A stretch of DNA of 50,792 nt, taken from contig JBAYKL010000001.1 in the NCBI GenBank assembly GCA_041664585.1, positions 70,592 through 121,383 of the forward strand, read 5' to 3'. Below are positions 7,367 through 28,002 of this stretch, piece by piece (position 1 is the first letter of the stretch; each line of letters starts with the position of its first letter). Under the pieces are notes generated by a model that saw only the letters and a program-made list of their open reading frames with translations, searched no databases and had not been told where the DNA came from. The stretch comes from Minisyncoccota bacterium (GTDB taxonomy: Bacteria > Patescibacteriota > Minisyncoccia > Phycocordibacterales > GWA1-40-21). The position numbers and the translations under genes are program-made.

Positions 7367-8464
7367 ATGAAAGATTTTTCTATAATAATATTATCTTATA
7401 AAAGTGTTGAGGTTATCAAAAAGAATATTGATAGTATTTTATCTCAGAAAATGCCAAGTCAAAATTATGAATTGATTCTAGTAGATGATGGCAGTCGTGA
7501 TGGTACAGATAAAGTTTTGCAATTAATTGCATCAACAAATAATAATATCCGTGTATTTGCTTTAAAAAAAAGACATGGAAATGGTTACTGTAAAAATCTT
7601 GCAATTAAAATGAGTGAAGGTAAAATTTTGTTCTTCCTAGACGATCATTTATTTTTGCCAAATAAAAATAGCATACTAATGATGTATGACGCACTAGCTA
7701 AAGATAAAAGTCTCGTTGGTGTTTGTGGTAATTACATTTCAGAAAATGAAAGTGACTATAATCTTTGTAGAGATATTAGACGGTTTATGATTTATGGAAA
7801 AAATAGTCAAGATTTATATTTAAATCCAAATAAGTTTATTCCATTCTCGATAGTGATTAGTGCTATTCGGAAGGATCATTTAAACAAGTCTAGAACTTTT
7901 CCAGAAGAATTTACTCCAAATGCATCTGAGGATATTTGTTTTCAGATAAATCAGCACAAAAAAATGAAAAGTTTTTTATATCTTTCGAGTGTTTTTGGGT
8001 ATCATTCACACAATGCTAATTTTTTTGATGCTGTTATAAAAATAAAAAGGGAGCTGGTTGGTTATATTCTTATTCTCAAAAAATTTTCAAATGATGTGCA
8101 TTTTAACAACTGGTATTTGCCTTCATTTTTTAGTTTTCCACTTCTTTTTTATTTTACATTAACTATTGTTTTTCTTAATAAATATCTTTGGCCGGTGTTG
8201 TTTCTAACCATACTACTTGAGATTTTGTTGTTATACCCTATTGCTTACTATAAAATTAGTTTAAAGGTTAAAATTAAAGTCTTTACATATTGTCTATTGA
8301 ATGAAGCATTGAAATTACCTGCTGTACTGTATATAATAACTAGACATCCTAGTTGTATGTTTTCCATACTGAGACAATTATTTTTTTGGGAAATTAAAAA
8401 AATAAAATATATTTATGAAAATAGATTTAAAAAACCCTGGGCATATAAAATTACTTCTTCTTAG
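7367..8464 (+). CDS. family 2 glycosyltransferase with C-terminal multi-TM region
   Basis: FSIIILSYKS...ELILVDDGSRDGT and FLDDH (DXD-like) match the GT-A fold. The C-terminal third is hydrophobic. First ATG at 7367; the track start 7316 overlaps the upstream gene. Confidence 0.8.
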   Translation: MKDFSIIILSYKSVEVIKKNIDSILSQKMPSQNYELILVDDGSRDGTDKVLQLIASTNNNIRVFALKKRHGNGYCKNLAIKMSEGKILFFLDDHLFLPNKNSILMMYDALAKDKSLVGVCGNYISENESDYNLCRDIRRFMIYGKNSQDLYLNPNKFIPFSIVISAIRKDHLNKSRTFPEEFTPNASEDICFQINQHKKMKSFLYLSSVFGYHSHNANFFDAVIKIKRELVGYILILKKFSNDVHFNNWYLPSFFSFPLLFYFTLTIVFLNKYLWPVLFLTILLEILLLYPIAYYKISLKVKIKVFTYCLLNEALKLPAVLYIITRHPSCMFSILRQLFFWEIKKIKYIYENRFKKPWAYKITSS

Positions 8465-9560
8465 TGAAGGGGTTAACTTTAACGAACATGTCCTTCTTGG
8501 TGTTGGAAAACAGTTCTCTGAGAACCGTTATTACTATAATGTTTCAAATGATCCAGAATTATTTAAGTATAATCTTCCTTCAGAAATACTTTTGCCACAG
8601 AATATAGAGTCGAGCATTTATTACAATAAAGATTCAAGATTGTCGTTACGTATTCAGGGTGATATTCTCCATCTTTTTTACGAAGAAAAAATTTTATTTC
8701 CCGTGTCCTTCAATGATAGACCTAATTTTTTTAGTAAAGATTTAAAAAATGGTATAGAATGTAAAAAAGTAATTTCAATGTATGGAAGATATGTTCTGGC
8801 CTTTTTTACTGATTCATCTTGTATATACTTTGAAAAAGGAATGCCATGTAAATTTTGTTCTCTTAAACCGTCTCGTAGAACCTTTGGAAAAGATAATGAA
8901 AAAGTGATAACCCCAGAGATGGCTAAAGAAGCTAGTGAAATAGCTGTGCAGACTGATACCGAAAGAATTAAATATGTTATGTATACAGCTGGAACTCCAG
9001 GTAATATAGATAAGGGATATGAACAGCAAATAGAAATGATTGAAAAAGTGAAGCCTTCGTTTTCTAATGATGTAAAGCATCACCTCACAATAATACCCAC
9101 AACAAACAAAAAACTTTTAGAAAAAATTAACAAAGCGGGGCTTGATTCAATAGCTTTTGATATTGAGGTTTTTGATAAAAAACTTTTTACCAAGTATTGT
9201 CCTGGAAAGTCTACTTTTATTGGACACGATGGTTTTATTGAAAGTCTAAAATTGGCGAGAAGTGTATTTGGGCATAGTAATGTTAAAGTCGGTTTTGTTG
9301 GAGGATTAGAGCCAATCGAATCGCTAAAAGAAGGAATGGAGTTTTTTGGAAAATTAGGCATTAGTATTGCGATTAATGTATTCCACCCAGACAAAAATAC
9401 TGAACTAGAGTATAAAACAAGACCGAGTATTGATTTTCTATTTGAAATGGTTAAGTTTCAATCTGAGGTGTATAAAAAGTATAATCTGATACCCGTTTTC
9501 CCATTTGGCGGCAGACGAAGTTCTTTGGACACAGAAGTGTACAGGGGTTTCTTTGACTAA
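8415..9560 (+). CDS. radical-SAM-like enzyme with non-canonical Cys triad (C-X8-C-X2-C)
   Basis: C136, C145 and C148 lie in DSSCIYFEKGMPCKFCSL. Downstream blocks are TIM-barrel-like (YTAGTPG, GLDSIAFDIEVFD, VGFVGGLEP). The ~130-aa N-terminal domain is of unknown type. Confidence 0.5.
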   Translation: MKIDLKNPGHIKLLLLSEGVNFNEHVLLGVGKQFSENRYYYNVSNDPELFKYNLPSEILLPQNIESSIYYNKDSRLSLRIQGDILHLFYEEKILFPVSFNDRPNFFSKDLKNGIECKKVISMYGRYVLAFFTDSSCIYFEKGMPCKFCSLKPSRRTFGKDNEKVITPEMAKEASEIAVQTDTERIKYVMYTAGTPGNIDKGYEQQIEMIEKVKPSFSNDVKHHLTIIPTTNKKLLEKINKAGLDSIAFDIEVFDKKLFTKYCPGKSTFIGHDGFIESLKLARSVFGHSNVKVGFVGGLEPIESLKEGMEFFGKLGISIAINVFHPDKNTELEYKTRPSIDFLFEMVKFQSEVYKKYNLIPVFPFGGRRSSLDTEVYRGFFD

Positions 9561-15170: not shown

Positions 15171-15680
15171 TTATTTATATTGTATCTTATTTATCTTTTC
15201 TTGTAAAAAAAACTGAAAATAACCCTTATACCTTTTTTGTAGGTCTTTAATCTTCCAATCATTACTCGTGATAGATTTCCTACAGTTTTTATCCCCACAC
15301 ACACAATCAAAAACGTAATCTGGTTTTTCTGTTTTTGAGTATAAACACATGGCATAATCAAAACAAATTTCTTCTCCCTTTTTAATTTCTCTTGTACTAA
15401 CTAAAAAAATTTGTCCTTTGATTCCAGCATTTGGATTACAAGAGTGATTCACATAATCTGTCGGCTCCTTGTGATCCAATGAAGTCAAAACAAGATCATC
15501 ATGAATCTGTATGCCAGAATCTACTTTTTCCTCTATTAAAGTAACAATATATCCACCAAAAATACACAGGGTTTCCCCTTTGTTAATTTTTCTTTTGGCA
15601 AAAACTCCTTTTGACTTTCCTTTTGTTTCCTTGATTTCTAAGTTGTGGTTTATCCAGGAAAACATTCTTTTTTTATTCAT
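15171..15680 (-). CDS. SET-domain protein-lysine methyltransferase with post-SET Cys cluster
   Basis: GKGVFAKRKINKGE, NHSCNPNA, EICFDY and post-SET CVCGDKNCR. The stop lies 1 nt from the start of the downstream kinase gene. Confidence 0.85.
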   Translation of the reverse strand: MNKKRMFSWINHNLEIKETKGKSKGVFAKRKINKGETLCIFGGYIVTLIEEKVDSGIQIHDDLVLTSLDHKEPTDYVNHSCNPNAGIKGQIFLVSTREIKKGEEICFDYAMCLYSKTEKPDYVFDCVCGDKNCRKSITSNDWKIKDLQKRYKGYFQFFLQEKINKIQYK

Positions 15681-15736: not shown

Positions 15737-16651
15737 CTAAAGACTGACCAAACAACCTCCTAAAATTATAATTAAAATAGAAATCGTTTTCTGTATTAAA
15801 TGTTTCTTTGATATCTTCTCTTTACAAATCTTAGGAAAAAATATAGTTAAAAATATTCCAATTATAAATACGAAAATAGGTTGTACACCAGATATCGTCA
15901 GGGTTAAAGCCACAGGAGCAAGAAGTAAGGCAAAATTAACAGCAAAATTTCCAATAATGGTTAATGATTCATTGGCTATGTTTAAAGAAATTATCTTTCC
16001 ACCTTTGGTTTTGAGTAAATTAAGAAAACTTAATTTATATTTCTTTATAAAAAGATAAAACAATATTCCCATTGAGAATACTCCTAAGTATTCCCAGAAA
16101 GAAGAAACAACAAAACCAACATCTACCGCCACAAACTTAAATAACGTCTCATAAAGAGCAAAAAGAATCGTCGACAACAACATCAATAAAATTATCCTCT
16201 TCTTGAATTTTATTTTTTTCTCTTCATCAAACTCTAAGGTTATTATGGCTGATCCACCAATAATTAGTAGACATCCTACTAGCTGCATCCAGGTTAGTGT
16301 TTCTCCCAAAATAAAATAAGAAAACATATATCCCCAGATTGGTATTAATTGAAATAAAGGTATGACTATAGAAGCCTCTTCTTCATCTAAAGCATACATG
16401 TAAGGCATAATAGCAAAGACACTTAGAATACCGACAACTATTAATAAAATAATATTCTCCACCGAAAGATTAAAAATATCATTATTAATGAAATACAAAA
16501 TTGGCAATAGTAAACCACACTGAAGAGTGGAGAATATCATTAAGGCACCGACATTACTACCCTCAAACCTATCTGAAAGCAAAAACTTATCAATATGATT
16601 GACTATAGCCCAAAGTATCGGTCCAATTAATGCAATTAAAAACCAGCTCAT
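15737..16651 (-). CDS. EamA/DMT-family transporter
   Basis: 304 aa, about 10 TM segments arranged as two repeats, which is typical of the drug/metabolite transporter superfamily. Confidence 0.75.
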   Translation of the reverse strand: MSWFLIALIGPILWAIVNHIDKFLLSDRFEGSNVGALMIFSTLQCGLLLPILYFINNDIFNLSVENIILLIVVGILSVFAIMPYMYALDEEEASIVIPLFQLIPIWGYMFSYFILGETLTWMQLVGCLLIIGGSAIITLEFDEEKKIKFKKRIILLMLLSTILFALYETLFKFVAVDVGFVVSSFWEYLGVFSMGILFYLFIKKYKLSFLNLLKTKGGKIISLNIANESLTIIGNFAVNFALLLAPVALTLTISGVQPIFVFIIGIFLTIFFPKICKEKISKKHLIQKTISILIIILGGCLVSL

Positions 16652-16694: not shown

Positions 16695-17219
16695 CTATTT
16701 TTTATTCTTTTTATATAAACTATTTTTTCTAAAGGATCTTCTAATTTTTTTATAATATTCATTAAAACTACCCAGACCAACGCTCTTCCTCCTATAAGAT
16801 AGCTTTTTAAGGTTATATATCGGTCGTGGTTCAAGTTCCCCACTAGTTCCAATATAAAACTGTGTTCCATATAATTGCTTCCTACCCTCAGATATTCTTA
16901 TTCTATCTTCTAAGTAAGCCGTAAGCTTTTTATTACCAGATTCTTTTTTCATTAATAAAAGAGAATCCTTTTGAAAAAGTTGGTCTGGAGAATGCTGAAC
17001 AACTAGCCATGCATATTTTTCGCACATAGCACCAACCTTTTTTGCAGATGGCCAACCTATTTCTAAAATAATTTTCTTTATTTTACTAGAATTTATTTTA
17101 TCAATTTTTTTATTCCATTTAATTTTACCATCTCTAAAATCTTTCCTCATCTTCTGATCAGATTCAGCCATTTCTTTTAATATGTTCCTGTAATCTTCTA
17201 TATCAATTTTATTTATCAT
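16695..17219 (-). CDS. hypothetical protein
   Basis: 174-aa ORF with an ATG start. Blocks GWPSAKKVG...WLVVQHS...YLEDRI...QLYGTQF recall an uncharacterised bacterial family. No function assignable. Confidence 0.45.
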   Translation of the reverse strand: MINKIDIEDYRNILKEMAESDQKMRKDFRDGKIKWNKKIDKINSSKIKKIILEIGWPSAKKVGAMCEKYAWLVVQHSPDQLFQKDSLLLMKKESGNKKLTAYLEDRIRISEGRKQLYGTQFYIGTSGELEPRPIYNLKKLSYRRKSVGLGSFNEYYKKIRRSFRKNSLYKKNKK

Positions 17220-17223
17220 ATTT

Positions 17224-17270
17224 ATATAAAATAAAAGGTGTGTTATTACTCATAATAATAACACACCTTT
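17224..17270 (-). terminator. Rho-independent terminator after the precursor peptide gene
   Basis: Perfect 15-bp stem: 17234-17248 (aaaggtgtgttatta) pairs with 17256-17270 (taataacacaccttt). A U-rich tract follows on the minus strand. Confidence 0.7.
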
Positions 17271-17289
17271 GTAACCACCCAAAGGGATT

Positions 17290-17409
17290 TCAATCGCTGT
17301 CGAAATCCCAGTCTTTACCAGTAATAAACTGGGTGGAATCGCCACAATCTGCAGAAGAAACCATCTCCGGTGTCTCAGCAAATTGAACACCAAACGGCTG
17401 TTTTTTCAT
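17290..17409 (-). CDS. graspetide (microviridin-like RiPP) precursor peptide, 39 aa
   Basis: Not in the ORF track. GGAGGTGA (comp. 17416-17423) lies 6 nt before the ATG (comp. 17407-17409). Encodes MKKQPFGVQFAETPEMVSSADCGDSTQFITGKDWDFDSD, ending at TGA (comp. 17290-17292). Sits 30 nt downstream of the ATP-grasp maturase. Leader is PFxxxF-type; the core is rich in Thr, Lys and Asp. Confidence 0.7.
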   Translation of the reverse strand: MKKQPFGVQFAETPEMVSSADCGDSTQFITGKDWDFDSD

Positions 17410-17439
17410 ATTTTATCACCTCCTTTCTATATCTTTAAT

Positions 17440-18414
17440 TTATGAACTACGATGTCCTTTTACAAGAACAGAAGCAATTGATTTACTTATTGGTAAACCT
17501 AGAATTCTTTCAATCCAGAGCCATTGACCATTAGGATTAATTTCTAAAAATATATATCCTAATTTTTTATTAAATATCAGATCAATAGCACCGAAAGACA
17601 GGCCGAGATTTTTGACTAAACCCAAACACTTATCAGAAATGTCCTTGGGTAAAGTCTCAATTTCGTGACGAAGCAATGTAGGATCTCGTCTCCAGTCTAT
17701 CTCAGTTACTGAAGAATTCTGTGAAAATATTTTCTCAGCAAAAATCTGATCGCCAACAACTGTAACACGCACCTCGTAAACCTTTTCTATATATTCTTGA
17801 AATAAACAAGGTGCAATAGTTATCTGACTCAGATCTTGTAGGTGTTTTTCTTCAACGATATTTGTAAAAAACACATGAAAGTCATCAATGGTTTTCCCTT
17901 TCTTTTTTGGCTGATGAAGAACTTTATAAATAACCCTTTTGTGTTTTTCCACAAAAGCAGCTACATCGTTCGGGCTGTTTGTAACGAGAAAATTTGGAAT
18001 TTGAAACCCCATATTTCTCGCAAAGTTAAGCTGAAAAATTTTATTTCCAGCAACCCTATTAAGAAAGGGGTGGTTTAAGAAAAAAACCTTTTCTCTTAAA
18101 CTCAACCAAATACCATCCCACGTTTCCCGTTCTTCACCTTCAGCAAACTCTTTTTGCCAAGGTACAGACACATCGTCTCCCCCAGATTTAAATACTGGAC
18201 GACGATACCATATACTTGATACATCTTCAAAAGACATGGTGTCTTTATTGCCGTTGACAATATTAATGCCACCACTATCAACAACAACAGAAAACTTTTC
18301 CCCATTTTCTTTTATATCAAGTATAACTGGGCAACCCCCCATTAATTTTATCTGTTCTACTACCGGATGCACATGTTGATCAATCTCCGCCGATAATATA
18401 ATAATATTTTTCAT
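17440..18414 (-). CDS. RiPP ATP-grasp maturase (MdnB/MdnC / MvdD family)
   Basis: 324 aa. Blocks VSSIWYRR, NKIFQLNFARNMGFQIP, FQEYIEKVYEVRVTVVGDQIF, DWR and FGAIDLIF..YIFLEINPNGQWLWIE match my recollection of the microviridin ligases. AGGTGG lies 5 nt before ATG at comp. 18412-18414; the track start is GTG. Confidence 0.85.
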   Translation of the reverse strand: MKNIIILSAEIDQHVHPVVEQIKLMGGCPVILDIKENGEKFSVVVDSGGINIVNGNKDTMSFEDVSSIWYRRPVFKSGGDDVSVPWQKEFAEGEERETWDGIWLSLREKVFFLNHPFLNRVAGNKIFQLNFARNMGFQIPNFLVTNSPNDVAAFVEKHKRVIYKVLHQPKKKGKTIDDFHVFFTNIVEEKHLQDLSQITIAPCLFQEYIEKVYEVRVTVVGDQIFAEKIFSQNSSVTEIDWRRDPTLLRHEIETLPKDISDKCLGLVKNLGLSFGAIDLIFNKKLGYIFLEINPNGQWLWIERILGLPISKSIASVLVKGHRSS

Positions 18415-18597
18415 ATCAACCACCTTCTTGTTAAAGACCTCGTTATCCCAACACCATGTTGGAATTTCTGCATTAATGGTCGCACAGACTTGATTTTAAG
18501 TCAAAACAGTTGTAAACAGATAGTTTTTTGCTAAAAATTATTAAAAACTAGCTGGCACATTGTTTTAAAAGGTTTTTTGTATTATGATTTATATGTA

Positions 18598-19899
18598 ATG
18601 AATATTTTGTTTATATCAAGAGAGTGTATAGCTGGTAACCTAGCTATTTTGCTTAAAAAAGAAGGACATAATGTAAAACTTTTTATTAATGCTAAACATG
18701 ATAGGCAAAATTTTGATAACCTCGTAGAAAAAACAAACTCCTGGAGAAAAGAGCTGAATTGGGTAGGAAAAGAAGGTTTAATTGTATTTGATGACGTTGG
18801 ATATGGAAAAACACAAGACTCACTTAGAAAAAAAGGTTACAAAGTATTTGGTGGATGTGAGCTTGGCGATAAATTAGAAAAAGATCGTGAATTTGGACAA
18901 GAAATATTTAAGAAATACGGATTAAAAACAGTTGAGCTTAAGGATTTCCACGACATCGAAGATGCCATACATTTTATAAAGAAAAATCCAAAAAAATGGG
19001 TTATAAAATGTAACGACCATAGCAGTAAATTTCTTACCTATGTTGGAGAATATGAATGCGGAAAGGATACTATTAGCGTTTTGAAAAATTATTTTAATAA
19101 TAGACACATAAAGAGAGACAGGATAACTTTACATGAGAGAATCGAGGGTATAGAAATGGGAGTCGGAAGATACTTTAATGGTAAAGATTGGGTTGGACCT
19201 ATTGAAATAAATTTTGAACACACAAAAATGTTCCCGGATGATGTTGGTCCCATTACAAGCGAAATGGGTACATTAGCTTGGTATGAGGAAGATGAAAGCA
19301 ACAAACTTTTCGTTGAAGTACTCGAAAGACTTAAACCATATTTGCAAGAAATAAACTTCAGGGGAGATTTCGAAGTAAATTGTATCGTAAATGAAAAAGG
19401 ATGCTTCCCTCTTGAAGCCACAGCCAGATTAGGCACACCGATAATTCACTTACACAGTGAACTACATACATCTCCATGGGGTGAATTTATGTATGCAATT
19501 GCTAATGGAGATAAATACGATTTAAAATACAAGAAAGGTTTTGGAATCGTAAACTTAATTGCAACTCCTCCATTTCCTTACGGAAAAAAGCATAGCAAAG
19601 AAACTCTGTATGGAATCAATATATATTTAGATAAGCTTACAAATAATGAGCTCGAGAGTTTCCATTTTGAAGGAATATCTATGAGAGTTGGTAAACATGA
19701 CGGACAATATTTCATTTCTACAGATGAAGGCTATATTGCATATACGACATCAGTAGCTAGTACAGTAGAAAAAGCTAGACAAAACAGTTTGGATATCATT
19801 AAAAAAACAGTTATACCAAAATCCTTCTACAGAAACGACATTGGAAAAGATTTCGAAAAAAGACTTCCAGATCTTAGAAAATGGGGATATATAAAATAA
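18598..19899 (+). CDS. PurD-like ATP-grasp protein (divergent phosphoribosylamine-glycine ligase family)
   Basis: The order of blocks matches PurD: EHTKMFPDDVGPITSEMGT (cf. HKR..D.D.GPNTGGMG), LEATARLGTPI (cf. EFNCRFGDPE), and C-terminal FYRNDIG. The N-terminal GGREHA motif is absent. ATG at 18598; the track start is TTG. Confidence 0.6.
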   Translation: MNILFISRECIAGNLAILLKKEGHNVKLFINAKHDRQNFDNLVEKTNSWRKELNWVGKEGLIVFDDVGYGKTQDSLRKKGYKVFGGCELGDKLEKDREFGQEIFKKYGLKTVELKDFHDIEDAIHFIKKNPKKWVIKCNDHSSKFLTYVGEYECGKDTISVLKNYFNNRHIKRDRITLHERIEGIEMGVGRYFNGKDWVGPIEINFEHTKMFPDDVGPITSEMGTLAWYEEDESNKLFVEVLERLKPYLQEINFRGDFEVNCIVNEKGCFPLEATARLGTPIIHLHSELHTSPWGEFMYAIANGDKYDLKYKKGFGIVNLIATPPFPYGKKHSKETLYGINIYLDKLTNNELESFHFEGISMRVGKHDGQYFISTDEGYIAYTTSVASTVEKARQNSLDIIKKTVIPKSFYRNDIGKDFEKRLPDLRKWGYIK

Positions 19900-19905
19900 A
19901 CATAT

Positions 19906-19937
19906 AAAAACAACCCTTATAATAAGGGTTGTTTTTA
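19906..19937. terminator. bidirectional Rho-independent terminator
   Basis: Stem aacaaccctta (19909-19919) pairs with taagggttgtt (19923-19933). Flanked by an A-run and a T-run, between convergent genes. Confidence 0.65.
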
Positions 19938-20408
19938 TATGTTTTCTAAAGTTGAACTAGCTATAGTCGTAGTTGCCTCCAAAACTTCAGGAGCTGGCTT
20001 TTCTGAACACACTTCCCCTTCAGATAGATTCTCTGGATCACAATATGTGTATGAACAATCTTCTTCATTTTCTAAACAAGAGAGTTCTTCATTGCAACCA
20101 AGCTTTTCTGAAGTCTTTTCACATTCATAAATACTAACAGCTTTTTTGCTGATCATTTTATAATCATAAGGTTCTTCTGCAGGTGCTGACAAACATTCTG
20201 TATCATCTGTAGCGCAAGGTTCTGGTGCATAATAGAAACAAGCTTCTGTAGCAGGATCACAAGAAGTTTCTGCAACGATTTGATAATCTTTCAAAATAAC
20301 AATTCTATAGAAAGTAAAACCAACTGAGCCAAGAATAAGCAAAGCAAAAACAATATAAAAAATCCTATTCCCCCAAATATTCTTTTTATTATTCCCTTCT
20401 TCGTTCAT
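19935..20408 (-). CDS. hypothetical membrane-anchored, acidic, Cys-rich exported protein
   Basis: One N-terminal TM segment (IFYIVFALLILGSVGFTFYRIVIL), followed by a ~115-aa Glu/Asp/Cys-rich ectodomain. Confidence 0.5.
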   Translation of the reverse strand: MNEEGNNKKNIWGNRIFYIVFALLILGSVGFTFYRIVILKDYQIVAETSCDPATEACFYYAPEPCATDDTECLSAPAEEPYDYKMISKKAVSIYECEKTSEKLGCNEELSCLENEEDCSYTYCDPENLSEGEVCSEKPAPEVLEATTTIASSTLENI

Positions 20409-21082: not shown

Positions 21083-21113
21083 ATGTTTAGTAAAGAGATC
21101 TTTGAAAGGAGAC

Positions 21114-22028
21114 ATGAAAATGAAGATTGTAAGATTAAAATGTTTTTCCTACTCAGACACGGAAAAGACTGAGTGGGAAAGTGCCCTTTTTCATCCAATT
21201 AAAGACTACAAATTTTCTGTGATGACAAAGGATGGTTTAACAATTGAGTGCGCTACATTTGAACTAATAGAGGGTGGCAAACACGAAGTGCACGCTTGCG
21301 TATCCTCTCAGGCTGGGTGTAAGTTTGGATGTAAGTTTTGTACTTCGGGTAAACACGGTTTTGTTAGAAACTTGAGTGCAGAAGAGATAGAAGAACAAAT
21401 ACATCTAATGGCAAAACACTTTGGCATACAAAGTTTTGACCATGTGGTGTATATGGGAATAGGAGAACCATTGGATAATCTTGAAAATGTAGGGCAAAGT
21501 ATTAGCTCTATAGTCAAAGCCAACCCATGGTACTCTGGTAAGATATCTTTATGCACCGCTGGGGTAACAGATAGTTTTAACCGCTTACTTGAGCTCAAGC
21601 TACCTCTGCGATACATGTGGTTATCTTTACATGCAGCGACTGACAATAAACGTCGTTTGATAATGCCGATCGCAAAATTAAACGGCATCGACCAATTAAT
21701 TAATACTGTGGGTGATTTTTCAGATAAATCTGGAATACCAACATGTGTTAATTACATGATACTGCATGGGTTTAATGACCTAGATGAAGATGTGATATCA
21801 CTCACTAAACTACTGGGTCAAACCACTAGCAGATTAAAATTAATGATAACCATTCCTAATGGAAGTATTGAGGGTTACAAATCTGGAACAAAAGAGGATA
21901 CAAAAAACTTCCAACAAAGACTTGTTGAAGCTGGGATAAAAAATCGGATTGTCCGTTTTTTGTCTGCGGGTAGACCAGTCAATGCTGGGTGTGGCGAACT
22001 TATCTTCATACCACAAAATCACAAGTAG
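21114..22028 (+). CDS. RlmN/Cfr-family radical SAM rRNA/tRNA adenine methyltransferase, lacking the N-terminal accessory domain
   Basis: ACVSSQAGCKFGCKFCTSGKHGFVRNL (C-X3-C-X2-C plus the upstream mechanistic Cys), YMGIGEPLDNLENV, LSLHAATD, and C-terminal NAGCGEL (second mechanistic Cys). The start is ATG 21114 or 21120; the track start is TTG. Confidence 0.8.
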   Translation: MKMKIVRLKCFSYSDTEKTEWESALFHPIKDYKFSVMTKDGLTIECATFELIEGGKHEVHACVSSQAGCKFGCKFCTSGKHGFVRNLSAEEIEEQIHLMAKHFGIQSFDHVVYMGIGEPLDNLENVGQSISSIVKANPWYSGKISLCTAGVTDSFNRLLELKLPLRYMWLSLHAATDNKRRLIMPIAKLNGIDQLINTVGDFSDKSGIPTCVNYMILHGFNDLDEDVISLTKLLGQTTSRLKLMITIPNGSIEGYKSGTKEDTKNFQQRLVEAGIKNRIVRFLSAGRPVNAGCGELIFIPQNHK

Positions 22029-22125: not shown

Positions 22126-23244
22126 TTAAGGATAGGTAATGTTATTTTTTAGTCTTGGATAAATAATGGCGTCTCTTATATTATCGCGACAAAGTGCCCA
22201 AGTAATAAGTCTCTCTACTCCAAGCCCAAAACCTGATGTTATTTGATAGTTCGGCAATTTACGTAGATCAATATACCAATCATAAGATTTTGAAGGTATG
22301 TTTTGCCTTTTAAGTGACTCAAGCATTTCTTGGTCATTATCTTGACGCTGACCACAACCAACAATCTCACCACCAAATGATCCGTCAATCAGAGGGGGAA
22401 ATATTAAATCAGCATTTATGGCCTTGTCCTTATTGTAAGAATCTGGTTTTTGATAAAAAGGAACTCTATCTCTATCATAATTTTTAATCCAAAGTGGTAT
22501 TTTCAAACCCAATATCTTCATAACCTCGATCTCTCCCCCAGAACTTATATCCCTACCAGACTCTGTAACTCTAACTAAATCACCCTTACCATTTTTTAAA
22601 AGAAGATCAACAGCCTCATCAAAAGTTATCTGAGGAAACTCTTTAGCTATAGAGATATTTCTAAAAGCGTCAAGAGAAACTTTAGAATCTAAACTAAGAC
22701 ACTTGATTATGTTCGGCATAGATAAAAATAGTTTGGACACTGTTTTTATATAACCCTCTATTATTGGTAACAATTTATTAATATCGCCTTTTATTTCGGC
22801 TTCACAGTGGAAAAACTGATTAAGATGTCTTTTGTCTGGATTTTCACCCCTCATCGAAGGTAAATAACAATATACTATGTCTAGACCATTCATTAATAAC
22901 GGCTCAAATCCAAACTGAGAAGAATCAACCAAAAAAGAATCTACTTCACCAAATTTTATAGGGATAACCTCCGAATCAGAACCTGGGCCCATAGGGGAAG
23001 ATACGCTAGATGTAATCATAAAAAGATCCACATTCTTTGCTTTGTTTTCTACCCCAAAATAATAATCAGAAATGACTTTAAAATAATGTCTCAATACTAT
23101 AAGTGCCTGAAAATACTTACTTCTTGTTAATTCCTTATAATGAGTGCTGGAGTTATATTCAGGTAATAAAAAATCTTCTTTTAATTTTTTATTAAATATT
23201 TTATCATCATTCTTAATTTGTTTTAATATATTTTTATTTATCAT
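22126..23244 (-). CDS. AsnRS/AspRS-like class IIb catalytic-core paralog without anticodon-binding domain (archaeal-type AsnA-like candidate)
   Basis: PSMRGENPDKRHLNQFFHCEAEI (motif 2), PLWIKNYDRDRVPFYQKP, DLIF..GGEIVGCGQRQ, YDWYIDLRKL, and GFGLGVERLITWAL (motif 3). No N-terminal OB fold. Confidence 0.7.
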   Translation of the reverse strand: MINKNILKQIKNDDKIFNKKLKEDFLLPEYNSSTHYKELTRSKYFQALIVLRHYFKVISDYYFGVENKAKNVDLFMITSSVSSPMGPGSDSEVIPIKFGEVDSFLVDSSQFGFEPLLMNGLDIVYCYLPSMRGENPDKRHLNQFFHCEAEIKGDINKLLPIIEGYIKTVSKLFLSMPNIIKCLSLDSKVSLDAFRNISIAKEFPQITFDEAVDLLLKNGKGDLVRVTESGRDISSGGEIEVMKILGLKIPLWIKNYDRDRVPFYQKPDSYNKDKAINADLIFPPLIDGSFGGEIVGCGQRQDNDQEMLESLKRQNIPSKSYDWYIDLRKLPNYQITSGFGLGVERLITWALCRDNIRDAIIYPRLKNNITYP

Positions 23245-23699
23245 TTTTTATAATCTATTTTAGACACACGACGGCAGTATCTTTTTTTATTTAAAAATTT
23301 TGTTTTTAAAAACAAATCAATTATATCAAACAAATCTTTCTTATCAATAAAACGTGATGCGATTGCCAAAGAATTAATGTCGTCATGCTCCCTATAATTT
23401 TTAACTATATTCTTATTACCTCCATACCAAATACCGCAACGAATTCTTTTGTATCTATTTAAAACAATTGATTCCCCCATACCTGAGCCACCAAAAATTA
23501 GAGCTCTGTTATTAATATTTTTAGAAAATTTGGATGCAAGCGGATGGAAAAAATCTGGAAAATCATCATCTTTATCATAAGATAACGCACCAAAATCTAG
23601 AACAGAGTAGCCACTATTAACTAAATATTTTTTAACTTTCTCTTTTAAATAAAATCCAGCGTGGTCTGCTCCTAAATAAATTATTATTTTTTTATCCAT
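23241..23699 (-). CDS. RpiB/LacA/LacB-family sugar-phosphate isomerase
   Basis: IIIYLGADHAGFYLKEKVKKYL and FGGSGMGESIVLNRY resemble ribose-5-phosphate isomerase B. ATGA overlap with the downstream gene. Confidence 0.7.
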   Translation of the reverse strand: MDKKIIIYLGADHAGFYLKEKVKKYLVNSGYSVLDFGALSYDKDDDFPDFFHPLASKFSKNINNRALIFGGSGMGESIVLNRYKRIRCGIWYGGNKNIVKNYREHDDINSLAIASRFIDKKDLFDIIDLFLKTKFLNKKRYCRRVSKIDYKK

Positions 23700-23710
23700 T
23701 GTATAAAAGA

Positions 23711-24916
23711 TTATTTTTTAAAATTATTTAATACTAATTCTAGACCAAAACAGCTACCAAAAAATCTTTCTTTCGTATCTGATGTTAGTTTAGAAACCCA
23801 ATCAGATGACCCGCCGTCGGCCAAACTCATCTCTTGACCTTCTGGATTAGTCCCTTTTATTTTAAAACAAACTCCGTTGTAATAGCCAACCCCAGCAGGT
23901 CTAGATAAGTCATACATGAAATCAATATTGGGAAACTTACCTCTTAATACAGAAATATAATTTGCATCTAATCTTTTTAATGTATTGATAGAAGTAATAA
24001 TATCCCTATTCGACCCATCATACTTAACATCTTTAATTGACTTTACCTTACCAGGTAATCCAACATTTACCGTCTCAAACATTTCTAGACTTTTCCCTCT
24101 TATATTATCCGTTATAATATTCCTATCAAAAACACCAGAATTAACAAGACTCTCTACTATTTTAATATCAGAAAGATAAACTTTTATGTTTTTTATTTCA
24201 AAACCTAGGTTATCCATTTTCCCTAAAATACCTAACCAGTAATCTAAATGTGTGTGCATCGCCTGTTCCTCAAAACCCTGTTGCCCTATATTCCTTCCAG
24301 AAGAAGTTAGATTGAAAGCAGAAAAATGCTGACAAAGATGTTTCTGGTAAAATTTTTGAAGTCTTAATACCCTACACGAATTAGCCAATTTTATATCACC
24401 GATATCTTTTCTTTCAGAAGTCTCCCAGCGACTATCCTCCATTTTTCTCCTTGCAGATTCTAATGACATAGAAATAGTTGAGTCACTAACAACCTCGGTA
24501 CTTCTTATGGTTTGTAATGCAGTTTTTGAGTTTATGTTTGTTAAAACACTACTTGAACCAACTGGAACAATAGGAGAAATTTCAACTAGGTCAAAGCCTT
24601 CTGGAAGATTACTCATTAAAAACAATTCTACTCTTTTAAGCTCTACTACATCTATCTTTGATGGTACAGTAAACCTATTTCCATTATAATTTTCCATTAA
24701 ATCTCTAGGTGTTAATTTCCCAATCCTTTTATTACAAATTCCCATTAACACACTACCCAATTCAGAAGAATTCAACTTCTCGGTCATCACATTGGAAAAT
24801 TTATCCGACTGGTCTCCCAAGTACTTTCTAACAAAATCGATTCCCTCTTCATCTTCTTTCACGATATTATTGGGTGATTTTAAATTATCGTCCTCTGATG
24901 AGTATGGGCGGGTCAT
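23711..24916 (-). CDS. HisRS/HisZ-like class II aaRS-fold paralog (degenerate motifs, no anticodon-binding domain)
   Basis: GVGYYNGVCFKI (cf. HisRS GLDYYTGxVFE) and LADGGSSDWVSKL...FFGSCFGLELV (cf. GGGRYDxL...GFaxGxERl). The motif 2 region is degenerate. Confidence 0.45.
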   Translation of the reverse strand: MTRPYSSEDDNLKSPNNIVKEDEEGIDFVRKYLGDQSDKFSNVMTEKLNSSELGSVLMGICNKRIGKLTPRDLMENYNGNRFTVPSKIDVVELKRVELFLMSNLPEGFDLVEISPIVPVGSSSVLTNINSKTALQTIRSTEVVSDSTISMSLESARRKMEDSRWETSERKDIGDIKLANSCRVLRLQKFYQKHLCQHFSAFNLTSSGRNIGQQGFEEQAMHTHLDYWLGILGKMDNLGFEIKNIKVYLSDIKIVESLVNSGVFDRNIITDNIRGKSLEMFETVNVGLPGKVKSIKDVKYDGSNRDIITSINTLKRLDANYISVLRGKFPNIDFMYDLSRPAGVGYYNGVCFKIKGTNPEGQEMSLADGGSSDWVSKLTSDTKERFFGSCFGLELVLNNFKK

Positions 24917-26157
24917 ATTATTTTATATTTTATCAACTTATTAACAGTATCTATTACATTATTAATCTCATTTAAATCTTTAGAAAAAATAGAATATTCA
25001 AAAAGAGGTGTCGGTAAATCAGGATAAGTTTTTAACTCCATCCCAATTTCTGAAATTATTTTTACATTACATAAGTTTTTAATATTTTTCAGAGAATCTA
25101 AACCAGAGATTTCTTTTAAAATACCCGAATGTTTAATCTGTGGGTAAAATAATTCATGATAATTAATACCTTTAGAGAAATAGTTTAACGGTATTGAATT
25201 ACCCAGCCAACAATCGTACATTAAATTAAGCATGTCAATACCATACACTCTATCATAGGTTTCGTGTATTAAAGCTCCGGCCATTCTACCTGCAATTTCA
25301 ACCAAATAAGGTTCCCCATCCTTGATCCTAAATTCAGCATGAAATGGAGAATTTATAAAGCCAAGCGTTTCTATTATACTTTTCAAATATTTATTAATAA
25401 CTTCTTGTTCCTTCTCTGTTAGTCTTGCAGGTATATAACTTGCTACCTGTGTAAAATAAGGTTCCTTACCCATTATAAATTCAATAGAACCAATAACTGA
25501 AATTTGTCCTCCGACAACAAAACCATCTAACGATATCATCTTTCCTGGAACATACTCTTCTATAAGCATGTTTCCATGGAAACGTTTAAATGATTCTCTA
25601 TGTTCTTGATTTACAGTTGCTCTAATAGTTTCAGATATTTTTTTATAATCAAAAAAATCACTCTCAATCAACAAGACGCCGTGGCTTGACGTTCCAAAGA
25701 TTGGTTTAATTACGCAAGGTTTAGGAAAAGCTCTTAGAATTTTTTCATTGTCATCAAAAATATTAAAAATATCGAAATCAGGCTGTCTAATTTTACTTTC
25801 TCTTAGTTTCACCCTCATAGCAAGTTTGTTACTTGAAGTAACCCTTGAAGAAATCTGTCCTATACTTTTGCAACCTAACAAACTAGCGATATCAGAAGTA
25901 GCCACAACTAAATCTTCACTAAAGGTACCGACAGCATCAATTTTAAGATTATTTTTTTCACAAAAGAAAATGGTTTCTTCAGTTATTGTTTGCAGATTAA
26001 AAACATCTGTTATTAAAATATCTTCCCGAGGTAAGTATTTTAAAAACATCTCATTAAATTTATTTGCAACCATTATTATACGATAGTTTTTTTCTCGAGC
26101 CTTCTTTAAAAGAAATTCCTTTGGACTATTGTGCTCTATAATAATTATTGTTTTCAT
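24913..26157 (-). CDS. ATP-grasp carboxylate-amine ligase (L-amino-acid-ligase / D-Asp-ligase-like size class)
   Basis: PCVIKPIFGTSSHGVLLI, MLIEEYVPGKMISLDGF and HAEFRIKDGEPYLVEIAGRMAG. 414 aa. ATGA overlap with the downstream gene. Confidence 0.75.
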   Translation of the reverse strand: MKTIIIIEHNSPKEFLLKKAREKNYRIIMVANKFNEMFLKYLPREDILITDVFNLQTITEETIFFCEKNNLKIDAVGTFSEDLVVATSDIASLLGCKSIGQISSRVTSSNKLAMRVKLRESKIRQPDFDIFNIFDDNEKILRAFPKPCVIKPIFGTSSHGVLLIESDFFDYKKISETIRATVNQEHRESFKRFHGNMLIEEYVPGKMISLDGFVVGGQISVIGSIEFIMGKEPYFTQVASYIPARLTEKEQEVINKYLKSIIETLGFINSPFHAEFRIKDGEPYLVEIAGRMAGALIHETYDRVYGIDMLNLMYDCWLGNSIPLNYFSKGINYHELFYPQIKHSGILKEISGLDSLKNIKNLCNVKIISEIGMELKTYPDLPTPLFEYSIFSKDLNEINNVIDTVNKLIKYKII

Positions 26158-26171
26158 ACAATTTAGTTTGT

Positions 26172-27179
26172 TTATTGAACGGCAGCTTCTTTAATAAAAA
26201 TCTTTTTATTCTTTGTATCTATTCCGACCTCAACACCTAATGGAAAAGTAAGTAAAGGTTTTGTATGCCCACAATCGATATTTGCCAAAATCGGTAAATT
26301 GTATTTTTTTGAGATTTCTTTTAAGAGTTTTCCCAAAGACCTCTTTGCTCCGCCAGATTCTTTAAACCCTCCAGAAACATTACCAAAAATTAGTCCATTA
26401 ATTTTTTCAAAAACACTATTTCTCTCCAATTCAATTATATATCTCTCATACCAGTCCGTCGACAACCCAGATTCTTCAAGAAATAAAATAGCACCGTTTA
26501 AATTGAAAAAACTCTCTTCTTTCATCAACATTACAAAAGTCTGTAAATTTCCACCAAAAAGACTCCCGGAAAAAGTCCCTTTTGGACCAAAAGAAACAAT
26601 CTTAGGTGATTCAACCATTTTCAACTTCTTATTATCTTGTTTTTCCCAATACTGATTATCAATTGAATATTTTTTAGCTTTCGGCAACAAGCCTACGCCT
26701 TTCTTAGAACTAATCAACTTCTCAAACTGATCAAAAGTAAAGGAAACAGAACCTTCAAATTCCCCGAAACTCGGCAAAAGTGTCGGTCCATGAAATGTTA
26801 CTATTTTGCTTTTTGACGTAATCATCAAAAGTAATGTCGTAATGTCTGAGTAACCACAAAAGATCTTCGGATTACTAGCTATCAATTTATAATTAATATA
26901 AGGCAAAACAGCATTAGCAGTAAGACCACCGGTTGAACATAAGATAGCGTCTATCTTTTTATCAGCAAAAGCGTTGTTTATATCTAAAGCTCTGTCTTTG
27001 GCTTTTCCACCGCTATAACCATCCGTTTTTAAAGCGCTTGGCATCATCTTAATCTTATAACCTCTTTTTTCTAAGAAGGCCACAGCTCTTCTCGTTCTTT
27101 TAGGAAACCTAGATATATCAGAAGAGGGACTAATGATAGCAATCGTGTCTCCCCTTTTTAAAGCTTTTGGTTTTAACAT
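26172..27179 (-). CDS. S66 peptidase (LD-carboxypeptidase LdcA / microcin C immunity MccF family)
   Basis: Catalytic-triad contexts: FCGYSDITTL (Ser), FLEESG (Glu), DCGHTKPLLTFPLG (His). Confidence 0.85.
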   Translation of the reverse strand: MLKPKALKRGDTIAIISPSSDISRFPKRTRRAVAFLEKRGYKIKMMPSALKTDGYSGGKAKDRALDINNAFADKKIDAILCSTGGLTANAVLPYINYKLIASNPKIFCGYSDITTLLLMITSKSKIVTFHGPTLLPSFGEFEGSVSFTFDQFEKLISSKKGVGLLPKAKKYSIDNQYWEKQDNKKLKMVESPKIVSFGPKGTFSGSLFGGNLQTFVMLMKEESFFNLNGAILFLEESGLSTDWYERYIIELERNSVFEKINGLIFGNVSGGFKESGGAKRSLGKLLKEISKKYNLPILANIDCGHTKPLLTFPLGVEVGIDTKNKKIFIKEAAVQ

Positions 27180-27189
27180 TTTAAAAAAA

Positions 27190-28002
27190 TTAAATACCTA
27201 TCTTCCTTGTTTTAAATAATTCCATTTCGTCTTTTTGCGATCTTTTTTGAAATAAAAAAATGGAATATTGAGCATACTTCAAATTTTGATTAAATAATTC
27301 AATAAACTTACTGTATTCTTTTTTTAGAACGTCTCTCTCTTTCTCGGGCAACTCCTGAAGATGTTTCTTACTAAAAATTTCTTCCACATAATTATTAATC
27401 TCTTTCTTTTTATCTTCATAACGGTAGGAAGACTCATATACCAACTCTAAACTTAAACCCGAATCTAGAGACATTTTCCTTACTAAATTTAACCAATAAT
27501 TCTTATCCCAAACTTGTATTTTTGAACCTATAGCGTTTGATATTTTATTAACAATAGATACTGGAGGTTTTTTAAAATAATAAATTGGAATAATTATTAA
27601 AATTCCACCCATTTTTAAAACTCGTAAATACTCAGAAAGGGCTTTTTCTTTATCATCAATAAATGATGTTACGTTACTTGCCCAGACAAAATCAAATGAT
27701 TCGTTCTCAAATGGAAGATTTAAAGCGCTTGCCTTAATAAAAGAAACTTTATTTTCTACCCCATTTGCTTTTGCATATTTCCTAGCCTCATCAATAGATT
27801 CGTCAACCATGTCTATACCAACAACCTGACCACCCGTGAGTAAACTTATATTTACACTCGTAAAACCAGTATTTGACCCGATCTCTAAAAGACGATGTTT
27901 TGGTGAAATAAAAGCATTCTTTACAACTTCATGCACTGTTTTTATACCGCCAGATGGACGGTTCCTTTCTTTAACTACACCAACAATTTCTGAGTAATTC
28001 AT
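27190..28002 (-). CDS. class I SAM-dependent methyltransferase
   Basis: Motif I LLEIGSNTGFTS, GIDMVDESI, and FDFVWASNV...LKMGGILII. Confidence 0.8.
   Translation of the reverse strand: MNYSEIVGVVKERNRPSGGIKTVHEVVKNAFISPKHRLLEIGSNTGFTSVNISLLTGGQVVGIDMVDESIDEARKYAKANGVENKVSFIKASALNLPFENESFDFVWASNVTSFIDDKEKALSEYLRVLKMGGILIIIPIYYFKKPPVSIVNKISNAIGSKIQVWDKNYWLNLVRKMSLDSGLSLELVYESSYRYEDKKKEINNYVEEIFSKKHLQELPEKERDVLKKEYSKFIELFNQNLKYAQYSIFLFQKRSQKDEMELFKTRKIGI

Follow-up and report, generated by a model that had tools for sequence, protein, structure and literature searches.

A probable three-gene graspetide cassette with a 39-residue precursor and a DUF6624 protein in a Minisyncoccota bacterium

Graspetides are multicyclic peptides of compact build that withstand proteases, and those that have been characterised inhibit such enzymes potently. 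One example is the microviridin system, which comprises MdnA, the ester ligase MdnC, the amide ligase MdnB and the GNAT protein MdnD. In a survey of ATP-grasp ligases, Makarova 2022 (PMC8939145) recognised two branches consisting of candidate-phyla bacteria, gave Phhx(1,2)h as the leader and TxxxTx(6-10)Dx(1-4)D as the core signature of the predicted precursors, and described an uncharacterised "cluster 23" with conserved His and Arg residues, which occurs at all branch-2 and many branch-1 loci and is among the commonest families in graspetide loci. Carter 2026 (PMC13097080) enlarged the classification to 43 groups by a RODEO survey and found DUF6624 to be frequent in groups 18, 20, 23 and 42, the last of these holding 22 clusters, 82% of them with DUF6624, and being represented by a cluster from Ca. 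Komeilibacteria. The "cluster 23" of Makarova is very probably DUF6624. Here we analysed a stretch of 50,792 nucleotides from a Minisyncoccota bacterium (contig JBAYKL010000001.1, positions 70,592 to 121,383; the whole stretch is called the window, and coordinates are those of the window), which probably carries a three-gene graspetide cassette on its minus strand, in the order ligase, precursor, hairpin and DUF6624. The cassette spans 16695 to 18414 plus the ribosome-binding sites, about 1.7 kb, and has the following features.

18420-18427, minus strand: ribosome-binding site of the ligase gene, GAAGGTGG, 5 nt upstream of the ATG at 18414
17440-18414, minus strand: predicted graspetide synthetase, an MdnC/MvdD-type ATP-grasp macrocyclase of 324 amino acids (NCBIfam, Pfam, PDB and AlphaFold 2 model)
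17416-17423, minus strand: Shine-Dalgarno sequence of the precursor gene, GGAGGTGA (read from the sequence)
17290-17409, minus strand: precursor gene, 39 amino acids, with an ATG start and a TGA stop (listing of open reading frames)
17368-17397, minus strand: leader motif of the recognition type, PFGVQFAETP, residues 5-14 (family alignment)
17293-17337, minus strand: core region STQFITGKDWDFDSD, residues 25-39 (family consensus)
17224-17270, minus strand: hairpin (stem 17234-17270) with a U-rich tract (terminator scan and folding)
16695-17219, minus strand: DUF6624 protein, 174 amino acids, third gene of the cassette (Pfam PF20329, E = 4.7e-14)

The original prediction had attributed MdnB/MdnC-type blocks to the 324-residue ATP-grasp protein, and all of them are present (VSSIWYRR, FQEYIEKVYEVRVTVVG, DWR, FGAIDLIF and YIFLEINPNGQWLWIE). 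The top NCBIfam model was TIGR04187, the SAV_5884-type maturase (E = 8e-62, 209 bits, short of the cut-off of 350), followed by MvdD (2e-60, 205 bits, cut-off 475), MvdC (2e-55, 188 bits, cut-off 425) and grasp-with-spasm (3e-36). The maturase models spanned 125-209 bits on this protein, compared with 54 bits for the RimK family (1.6e-14, cut-off 143) and 23-26 bits for glutathione synthase, GshB (3e-6, cut-offs 272-299). In Pfam, the best single match was the RimK ATP-grasp domain (1.4e-7), and the MvdD pre-ATP-grasp domain fell just short of its gathering score (25.4 vs 27 bits). Searching the PDB by sequence returned CdnC (2e-37) and MdnC (3e-37) as the best matches, followed by MdnB and AMdnB, with PsnB much weaker (E = 2.9e-11). 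The AlphaFold 2 model, built with 16 relatives in the alignment, had a predicted local distance difference test score (pLDDT) of 89.5, and Foldseek aligned it with MdnC (PDB 5ig9; template-modelling score, TM, 0.86; 32% identity), chryseoviridin CdnC (PDB 7mgv; TM 0.84; 31% identity) and PsnB (PDB 7drm; TM 0.79; 22% identity). Graspetide macrocyclases occupied ranks 1-32 exclusively, RimK appearing from rank 33 with TM 0.66-0.70. Relatives of the ligase all retain the ATP-grasp signature residues, including D278, E291 and N293 within FLEINPNGQW. Taken together, the NCBIfam, PDB sequence and Foldseek comparisons agree with the predicted grouping of this protein with maturases of peptides that ribosomes make and that are modified after translation (RiPPs), and sequence and modelled fold alike identify the ligase as a graspetide macrocyclase and not as RimK or GshB. 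A hidden Markov model scan of the whole window found neither a second copy of the precursor nor a second RiPP-type ligase, and a Pfam scan of the neighbours found no GNAT, protease or dedicated ABC exporter adjoining the ligase, so that the proposed single ligase and bare neighbourhood were confirmed.

The precursor reading frame lies exactly where it had been placed, starting 30 nt past the stop codon of the ligase gene (TAA, 17440-17442) and encoding the 39-residue peptide MKKQPFGVQFAETPEMVSSADCGDSTQFITGKDWDFDSD. The strong Shine-Dalgarno sequence claimed for it was likewise recovered, GGAGGTGA being separated from the ATG by the 6-nt spacer TAAAAT, and a AAAGGAGGTGA element is found 5' of the precursor in L001 as well (L-numbers denote the related loci fetched). 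The frame had been described as missing from the listing of reading frames, which was true of the list then at hand, whereas the gene is present in public annotations of identical contigs that stem from at least three samples. A homologous small reading frame was found immediately 3' of the ligase at every orthologous ligase locus fetched: each of the six closest ligases among 5.8 billion proteins, 41-66% identical to that of the window, is directly trailed by one, and a precursor homologue comes after the ligase in each of L001-L012 and L099-L101, which represent 10 distinct loci. In these homologues the leader-like and core-like blocks are both retained, as expected from the claim that the small frame is kept beside orthologous ligases. 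A profile of the precursor family recovered the window peptide with E = 2.8e-13 for a database of 5.8 billion proteins. Because homologous small frames trail the orthologous ligases and the profile recovers the window peptide, the 39-codon frame is more than a chance occurrence and, judged by its conservation, is a real graspetide precursor gene. Codon differences in the conserved blocks of close pairs gave synonymous to non-synonymous ratios of 14:1, 12:4 and 11:3, the pattern of a peptide that is evidently under purifying selection.

The leader consensus of the family is P[FL]Gx[QHY]FA[EK]xP, in which P5, G7, F10 and P14 are shared by all eight members and A11 by seven. This motif resembles the PFFARFL element of microviridin and the Phhx(1,2)h signature of Makarova 2022 (PMC8939145), and by analogy it may bind to the ligase. 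No member of the family is shorter than the window peptide, whose leader begins almost at the recognition motif. At the other end, the core consensus is [ST][ST][QE]Ω[IL][ST]x(1-4)K[DE]WD[FY]D[QES]D-COOH, where the Lys, the Trp and three Asp residues are invariant across the family and the sole indels fall in the stretch from the third hydroxyl residue to the Lys. Four conserved positions could serve as donors, namely the adjacent Ser/Thr pair S25/T26, T30 and K32, and four as acceptors, namely D33 (Asp or Glu in the family), D35, D37 and the C-terminal D39. Every putative donor lies N-terminal to every putative acceptor, with the indel-tolerant segment between the two sets.

The precursor family is very rare in public data. 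A word-indexed profile search of 5.8e9 proteins yielded eight clusters at 90% identity, and an exhaustive profile search of 1.84e9 representatives yielded seven, which are the same set under coarser clustering; one extra match in the latter search (P0241) was a tandem-repeat artefact and was discarded as false. Among 185,579 species-representative genomes a single locus was found, in Ca. Zambryskibacteria, and scanning JGI metagenomes for K[DE]WD[FY]D[QES]D returned three true loci and a fourth, spurious match inside a long reading frame. The only named members of the family come from Ca. Zambryskibacteria (L012) and Ca. Paceibacterota (L007). When the ligases from 87 loci were placed in a neighbour-joining tree, the carriers of the precursor family formed one clade, and their sister was a pair of Ca. 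Vogelbacteria ligases that are also accompanied by DUF6624. The Vogelbacteria locus L017 (2078-5332) has a different gene order, in which a precursor candidate ending in ...TSCTWTGGPDSCEADEDQ and bearing a PLG-type leader is followed by DUF6624 on the opposite strand, the ligase and a radical SAM protein of the SPASM type with a Cys-rich C-terminus; this candidate, too, is unlike the window family.

None of the strings WDFD, WDYD and EWDY occurs in the precursor files of Makarova 2022 (PMC8939145), where DWDF turns up only in an unrelated Pedobacter peptide, and neither WDFD nor WDYD was present in the searchable part of the Carter 2026 supplement (PMC13097080), for which the absence is provisional. 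The precursors of group 27, the other group of that work rich in candidate phyla, were considered and found to be unrelated to the window family. As far as these sources could be searched, the precursor family appears to be new to the published catalogues. The architecture itself and the presence of graspetides in ultrasmall bacteria are already in print (PMC8939145; PMC13097080), so a graspetide in a reduced-genome host, which the original prediction had singled out as notable, is not in itself a novelty.

The locus had also been regarded as minimal and as ending at 17224. Just beyond this point lies the DUF6624 gene (16695-17219), a conserved third member: DUF6624 directly follows the precursor in nine of the 10 distinct family loci (L001, L003-L012, L099 and L100), the exception being L002 with its near-identical copy L101. 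It is kept beside the ligase and the precursor across 41-66% ligase identity, and all other flanking genes change; the outer flanks include methyltransferases, an HD protein, trigger factor or a TIR protein, depending on the locus, and a PurD-like gene and an EamA protein in the window. Since the synteny is conserved and the outer flanks vary, the conserved unit consists of ligase, precursor and DUF6624. DUF6624 also adjoins other candidate-phyla ligases in other orientations, and its reading frame overlaps that of the ligase in L024 and L041. After the cassette, L003 (3342-5549) carries genes for a protein with only weak similarity to C39-like peptidases, a methyltransferase and a FeeM/acetyltransferase-like protein, which could be extra tailoring or processing genes. 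In three further candidate-phyla loci with a ligase and DUF6624, small reading frames have acidic, Ser/Thr-rich tails, ...SWTTGSDTGSDADD in L023 (3870-3980), ...GPGSYDTD in L024 (2211-2393) and ...NDVDQDDDQD in L053 (1830-2072); as they were filtered by composition, they are precursor candidates only. A general rule that all DUF6624-linked precursors end in Asp was dropped, given that a filter for acidic and hydroxyl-rich tails makes it circular and that the Vogelbacteria candidate ends in Gln.

An alignment of 59 DUF6624 homologues contained 11 invariant columns (D21, R25, Q75, H76, L87, A101, L103, D105, R106, G118 and Q120), which form the motifs DQKMR, WLxxQH, AYLEDR and QLYGTQ. Such invariant polar residues are typical of an active or binding site, and may well mark one here. 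The AlphaFold 2 model of the window protein (pLDDT 95.6) is mainly helical with a small beta-hairpin. Foldseek returned no PDB match to it at E < 1 (best E = 1.9, TM 0.36) and none in BFVD, no other Pfam family was significant when the 59 members were scanned at E values up to 1, and a profile search of PDB sequences gave nothing significant.

Between the precursor and DUF6624 lies the hairpin, described in the original prediction as a perfect 15-bp stem with a U-tract at 17234-17270. Both elements are present, although the stem is slightly stronger than claimed, with 16-17 bp closed by a loop of 3 nt, after which comes UUUUAUUUUAU. It folds with a free energy of -23.2 kcal/mol (z = -3.9; none of 200 shuffles folded as well) and is the strongest terminator-like site within the 4 kb scanned. 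A GC-rich hairpin followed by a T-run separates the precursor stop from the DUF6624 start in all loci folded (L001, L003-L008 and L010), differing in sequence from locus to locus and constant in position. The L001 hairpin is homologous to that of the window and carries a compensatory U-A to C-G change in the stem, and the DUF6624 starts (MNKID vs MINKID) line up just past the hairpin. Attenuator or stabiliser hairpins often sit 3' of RiPP precursor genes, and we read this one, by analogy, as an intrinsic-terminator-like attenuator or stabiliser element.

From these features we propose the following course of events. The strong ribosome-binding site would ensure efficient translation of the 39-residue precursor, whose N-terminal P-F-G-x-Q-F-A element would dock on the ATP-grasp ligase as the microviridin leader does on MdnC. 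With ATP, the ligase would phosphorylate side-chain carboxylates of the C-terminal K-D-W-D-F-D-S-D strand and join the activated groups to the hydroxyls of S25, T26 and T30, and possibly to the amine of K32. Some graspetide synthetases form both esters and amides (Carter 2026, PMC13097080), so that the Lys could be used even with one ligase. The product would be a multicyclic peptide lacking two to four waters, most likely a hairpin with nested rings, a topology suggested because the putative donors are all N-terminal to the acceptors and indels are tolerated only in the segment that separates the two sets. The RNA hairpin 3' of the precursor gene would stabilise or terminate most transcripts, so that DUF6624 would be made in smaller amounts by read-through, and DUF6624 would probably work after the ligase, on the acidic cross-linked peptide.

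Several findings weigh against a dedicated three-gene cassette of this kind. The ligase stays under the curated cut-off of all NCBIfam maturase models and is therefore within the clade and in no named subfamily. L002 has a ligase and a precursor with no DUF6624 in the following 1.1 kb of contig. Two homologues of DUF6624, 41-42% identical to the window protein, have neither an MvdD-type ligase nor a precursor gene within 5 kb (L095, 5001-5498; L097, 5001-5519), the one in L097 lying beside a Sec61-beta-like gene that suggests an archaeon; DUF6624 is therefore not strictly a graspetide protein, and an immunity role or a general function accounts for these orphans no less well than tailoring does. 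Neither a protease nor an exporter lies within the cassette, and the cross-links of the product are predicted from its genes. The sharpest departure from our interpretation would be to regard the ATP-grasp protein as a housekeeping ligase of the RimK or glutathione-synthetase type and the small frame as either fortuitous or the code for a regulatory peptide, a view favoured by the Pfam result, in which the generic RimK ATP-grasp domain ranks first and the MvdD domain stays below threshold. It can hardly be correct, and is in effect already refuted, as RiPP maturase models score at least 150 bits above RimK and GshB in NCBIfam, 32 graspetide macrocyclase chains outrank any RimK in structure, and the small frame is conserved as a protein at every orthologue. 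It is also improbable to a marked degree that the cassette has only two genes and that DUF6624 is a frequent neighbour of unrelated function. The incomplete L002, the occurrence of DUF6624 away from ligases and the terminator-like hairpin in front of it would fit such an arrangement, yet the gene is retained across 41-66% ligase identity while other flanks change, is kept beside other candidate-phyla ligases in different orientations, and was associated with graspetides by two independent published surveys (PMC8939145; PMC13097080).

With the three-gene cassette thus preferred, the role of DUF6624 was considered separately, and here we tentatively favour a post-ligase processing or tailoring enzyme, independent of cofactors, that might for example remove the leader. 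Somewhat doubtful, though a serious competitor, is self-protection, in which DUF6624 would be an immunity protein that binds or inactivates the mature acidic macrocycle, for instance by opening ester rings, and is dispensable for synthesis. Solitary DUF6624 genes are found in other genomes, a common pattern for orphan immunity genes; many cluster 23 members have lipoprotein signal peptides (Makarova 2022, PMC8939145), like LanI-type immunity lipoproteins, and two members of our alignment have hydrophobic N-termini; the gene sits behind a terminator-like hairpin; and a poly-Asp tail might find its binding partners in the conserved Arg, His and Gln. On the other hand, signal peptides are lacking in the window protein and in its close relatives, those graspetides that have been characterised inhibit proteases instead of attacking membranes as toxins (Carter 2026, PMC13097080), so that a need for immunity is not evident, and the 11 invariant columns, including the QH pair and the EDR triad, look more catalytic than those of a simple binder. 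We consider it unlikely that DUF6624 is a partner of the ligase that provides stability or presents the substrate, as MirC does for the rosaritide ligase MirB. Partner-dependent graspetide synthetases do exist (Carter 2026, PMC13097080), and the tight adjacency of the genes, with overlapping frames in L024 and L041, would suit such a function; orphan DUF6624 genes far from any ligase, signal-peptide members that would occupy a compartment other than that of the cytoplasmic ligase, the upstream hairpin, which makes equal amounts of the two proteins unlikely, and the absence of DUF6624 from L002 all speak against it. A more ambitious extension of the tailoring proposal links two claims and is offered as speculation: that DUF6624 represents a hitherto undescribed class of RiPP enzyme whose fold is absent from solved structures and which acts on the cross-linked peptide as a leader peptidase, ester hydrolase or other tailoring enzyme, and that the K[DE]WD[FY]DxD peptides form a new graspetide group in which one ligase makes three esters and one amide in an undescribed ring topology, for dealings of ultrasmall Patescibacteria with hosts or competitors.

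The G+C content of the window is uniformly low (28-38%) and its genes include housekeeping functions (DnaK, DnaJ and several aminoacyl-tRNA synthetases, among them AlaRS and ProRS), and the cassette is therefore chromosomal and inconspicuous in its base composition. The minus strand continues directly downstream of DUF6624 with genes for an EamA-family transporter (15737-16651) and a SET-domain protein (15171-15680; 1e-15). The EamA protein could export the peptide in this organism; it was not counted as part of the cassette, and was rejected as a dedicated exporter, for it is not conserved beside the cassette in other organisms. On the opposite side, the divergent plus-strand gene at 18577-19899 encodes a PurD-like ATP-grasp protein with a weak purD match (93 bits vs a cut-off of 288), which adjoins the cassette only in contigs of the same organism and not in other family members. 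It is followed by a minus-strand frame of 157 residues (19935-20408) with an N-terminal hydrophobic segment, a remainder rich in Cys, Glu and Asp, and no Pfam match. Two radical SAM proteins are encoded on the plus strand (8415-9560 and 21102-22028); neither adjoins the ligase, nor was a SPASM connection with the cassette apparent. Further on, a minus-strand run at 22126-28002 comprises, in order, a 372-residue class II aminoacyl-tRNA synthetase core only (tRNA-synt_2, 6e-26), RpiB, a 401-residue protein of no family, another ATP-grasp protein (ATP-grasp_4, 414 residues), an LD-carboxypeptidase (S66) and a methyltransferase, and may represent a small amino-acid ligation or cell-wall peptide pathway.

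With its 39-residue precursor and an almost bare recognition motif, the window holds the smallest version found of the DUF6624 graspetide cassette. It could serve as a convenient test system both for how one ligase makes rings on a core with four putative donors and four putative acceptors and for the function of DUF6624, one of the commonest unexplained graspetide-associated proteins in two surveys (PMC8939145; PMC13097080). As far as the searched literature shows, no graspetide from a candidate-phyla bacterium or from a DUF6624 cluster has been characterised, and the cassette raises the question of why very small genomes keep a graspetide cluster.

Among described systems, the candidate-phyla clusters of Carter group 42 and Makarova branches 1 and 2 are closest in architecture, having, like the window, one MdnC-like ligase, a short precursor, DUF6624 and nothing else. 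As in clusters classed as DUF6624-linked, a PF20329 gene lies beside the ligase and the cassette has no transporter or peptidase genes, in the window and in its relatives alike. The named relatives of the cassette, as in those candidate-phyla clusters, are all Patescibacteria (Ca. Zambryskibacteria, Ca. Paceibacterota and the sister Ca. Vogelbacteria), and on this ground a host from that group is likely for the window too. The window core fits the loose branch-1 signature of Makarova through T26, T30, D37 and D39. In contrast, the group 42 representative of Carter 2026 has a precursor ending in ...GFTTHGTPNDPDSGGTD, unlike that of the window.

Plesiocin, made by PsnB, shares with the window a single ligase and donors, putative ones in the window, that are N-terminal to the acceptors with a turn between them, an arrangement that recalls the ring-within-ring connectivity described for hairpin-type graspetides (Carter 2026, PMC13097080). 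Compared with plesiocin, the window core is unrepeated and combines a conserved Lys with four acidic positions, ending in the C-terminal residue itself. The rosaritide system (MirB/MirC) offers another parallel, in that a strictly co-occurring protein other than a ligase accompanies the ligase and the precursor, although MirC has a PpiC-type chaperone domain and DUF6624 is unrelated to it.

Finally, microviridin provides, together with CdnC, the closest solved structures to the window ligase. Its PFFARFL element is comparable to the P-aromatic-x-x-x-F-A leader of the window peptide, and both cores have a Lys, then a D-W pair and then acidic residues, when compared with the microviridin stretch ...KYPSDWEE.... 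The microviridin pathway employs two ligases and a GNAT, whereas the window has one ligase and no GNAT. As originally claimed, the window core does not fit the microviridin pattern TxKxPSDx(D/E)(D/E), its family following [ST][ST]xΩ[IL][ST]x(1-4)K[DE]WD[FY]DxD instead, and the placement of all putative donors before the acceptors suggests nested rather than cage-like rings.

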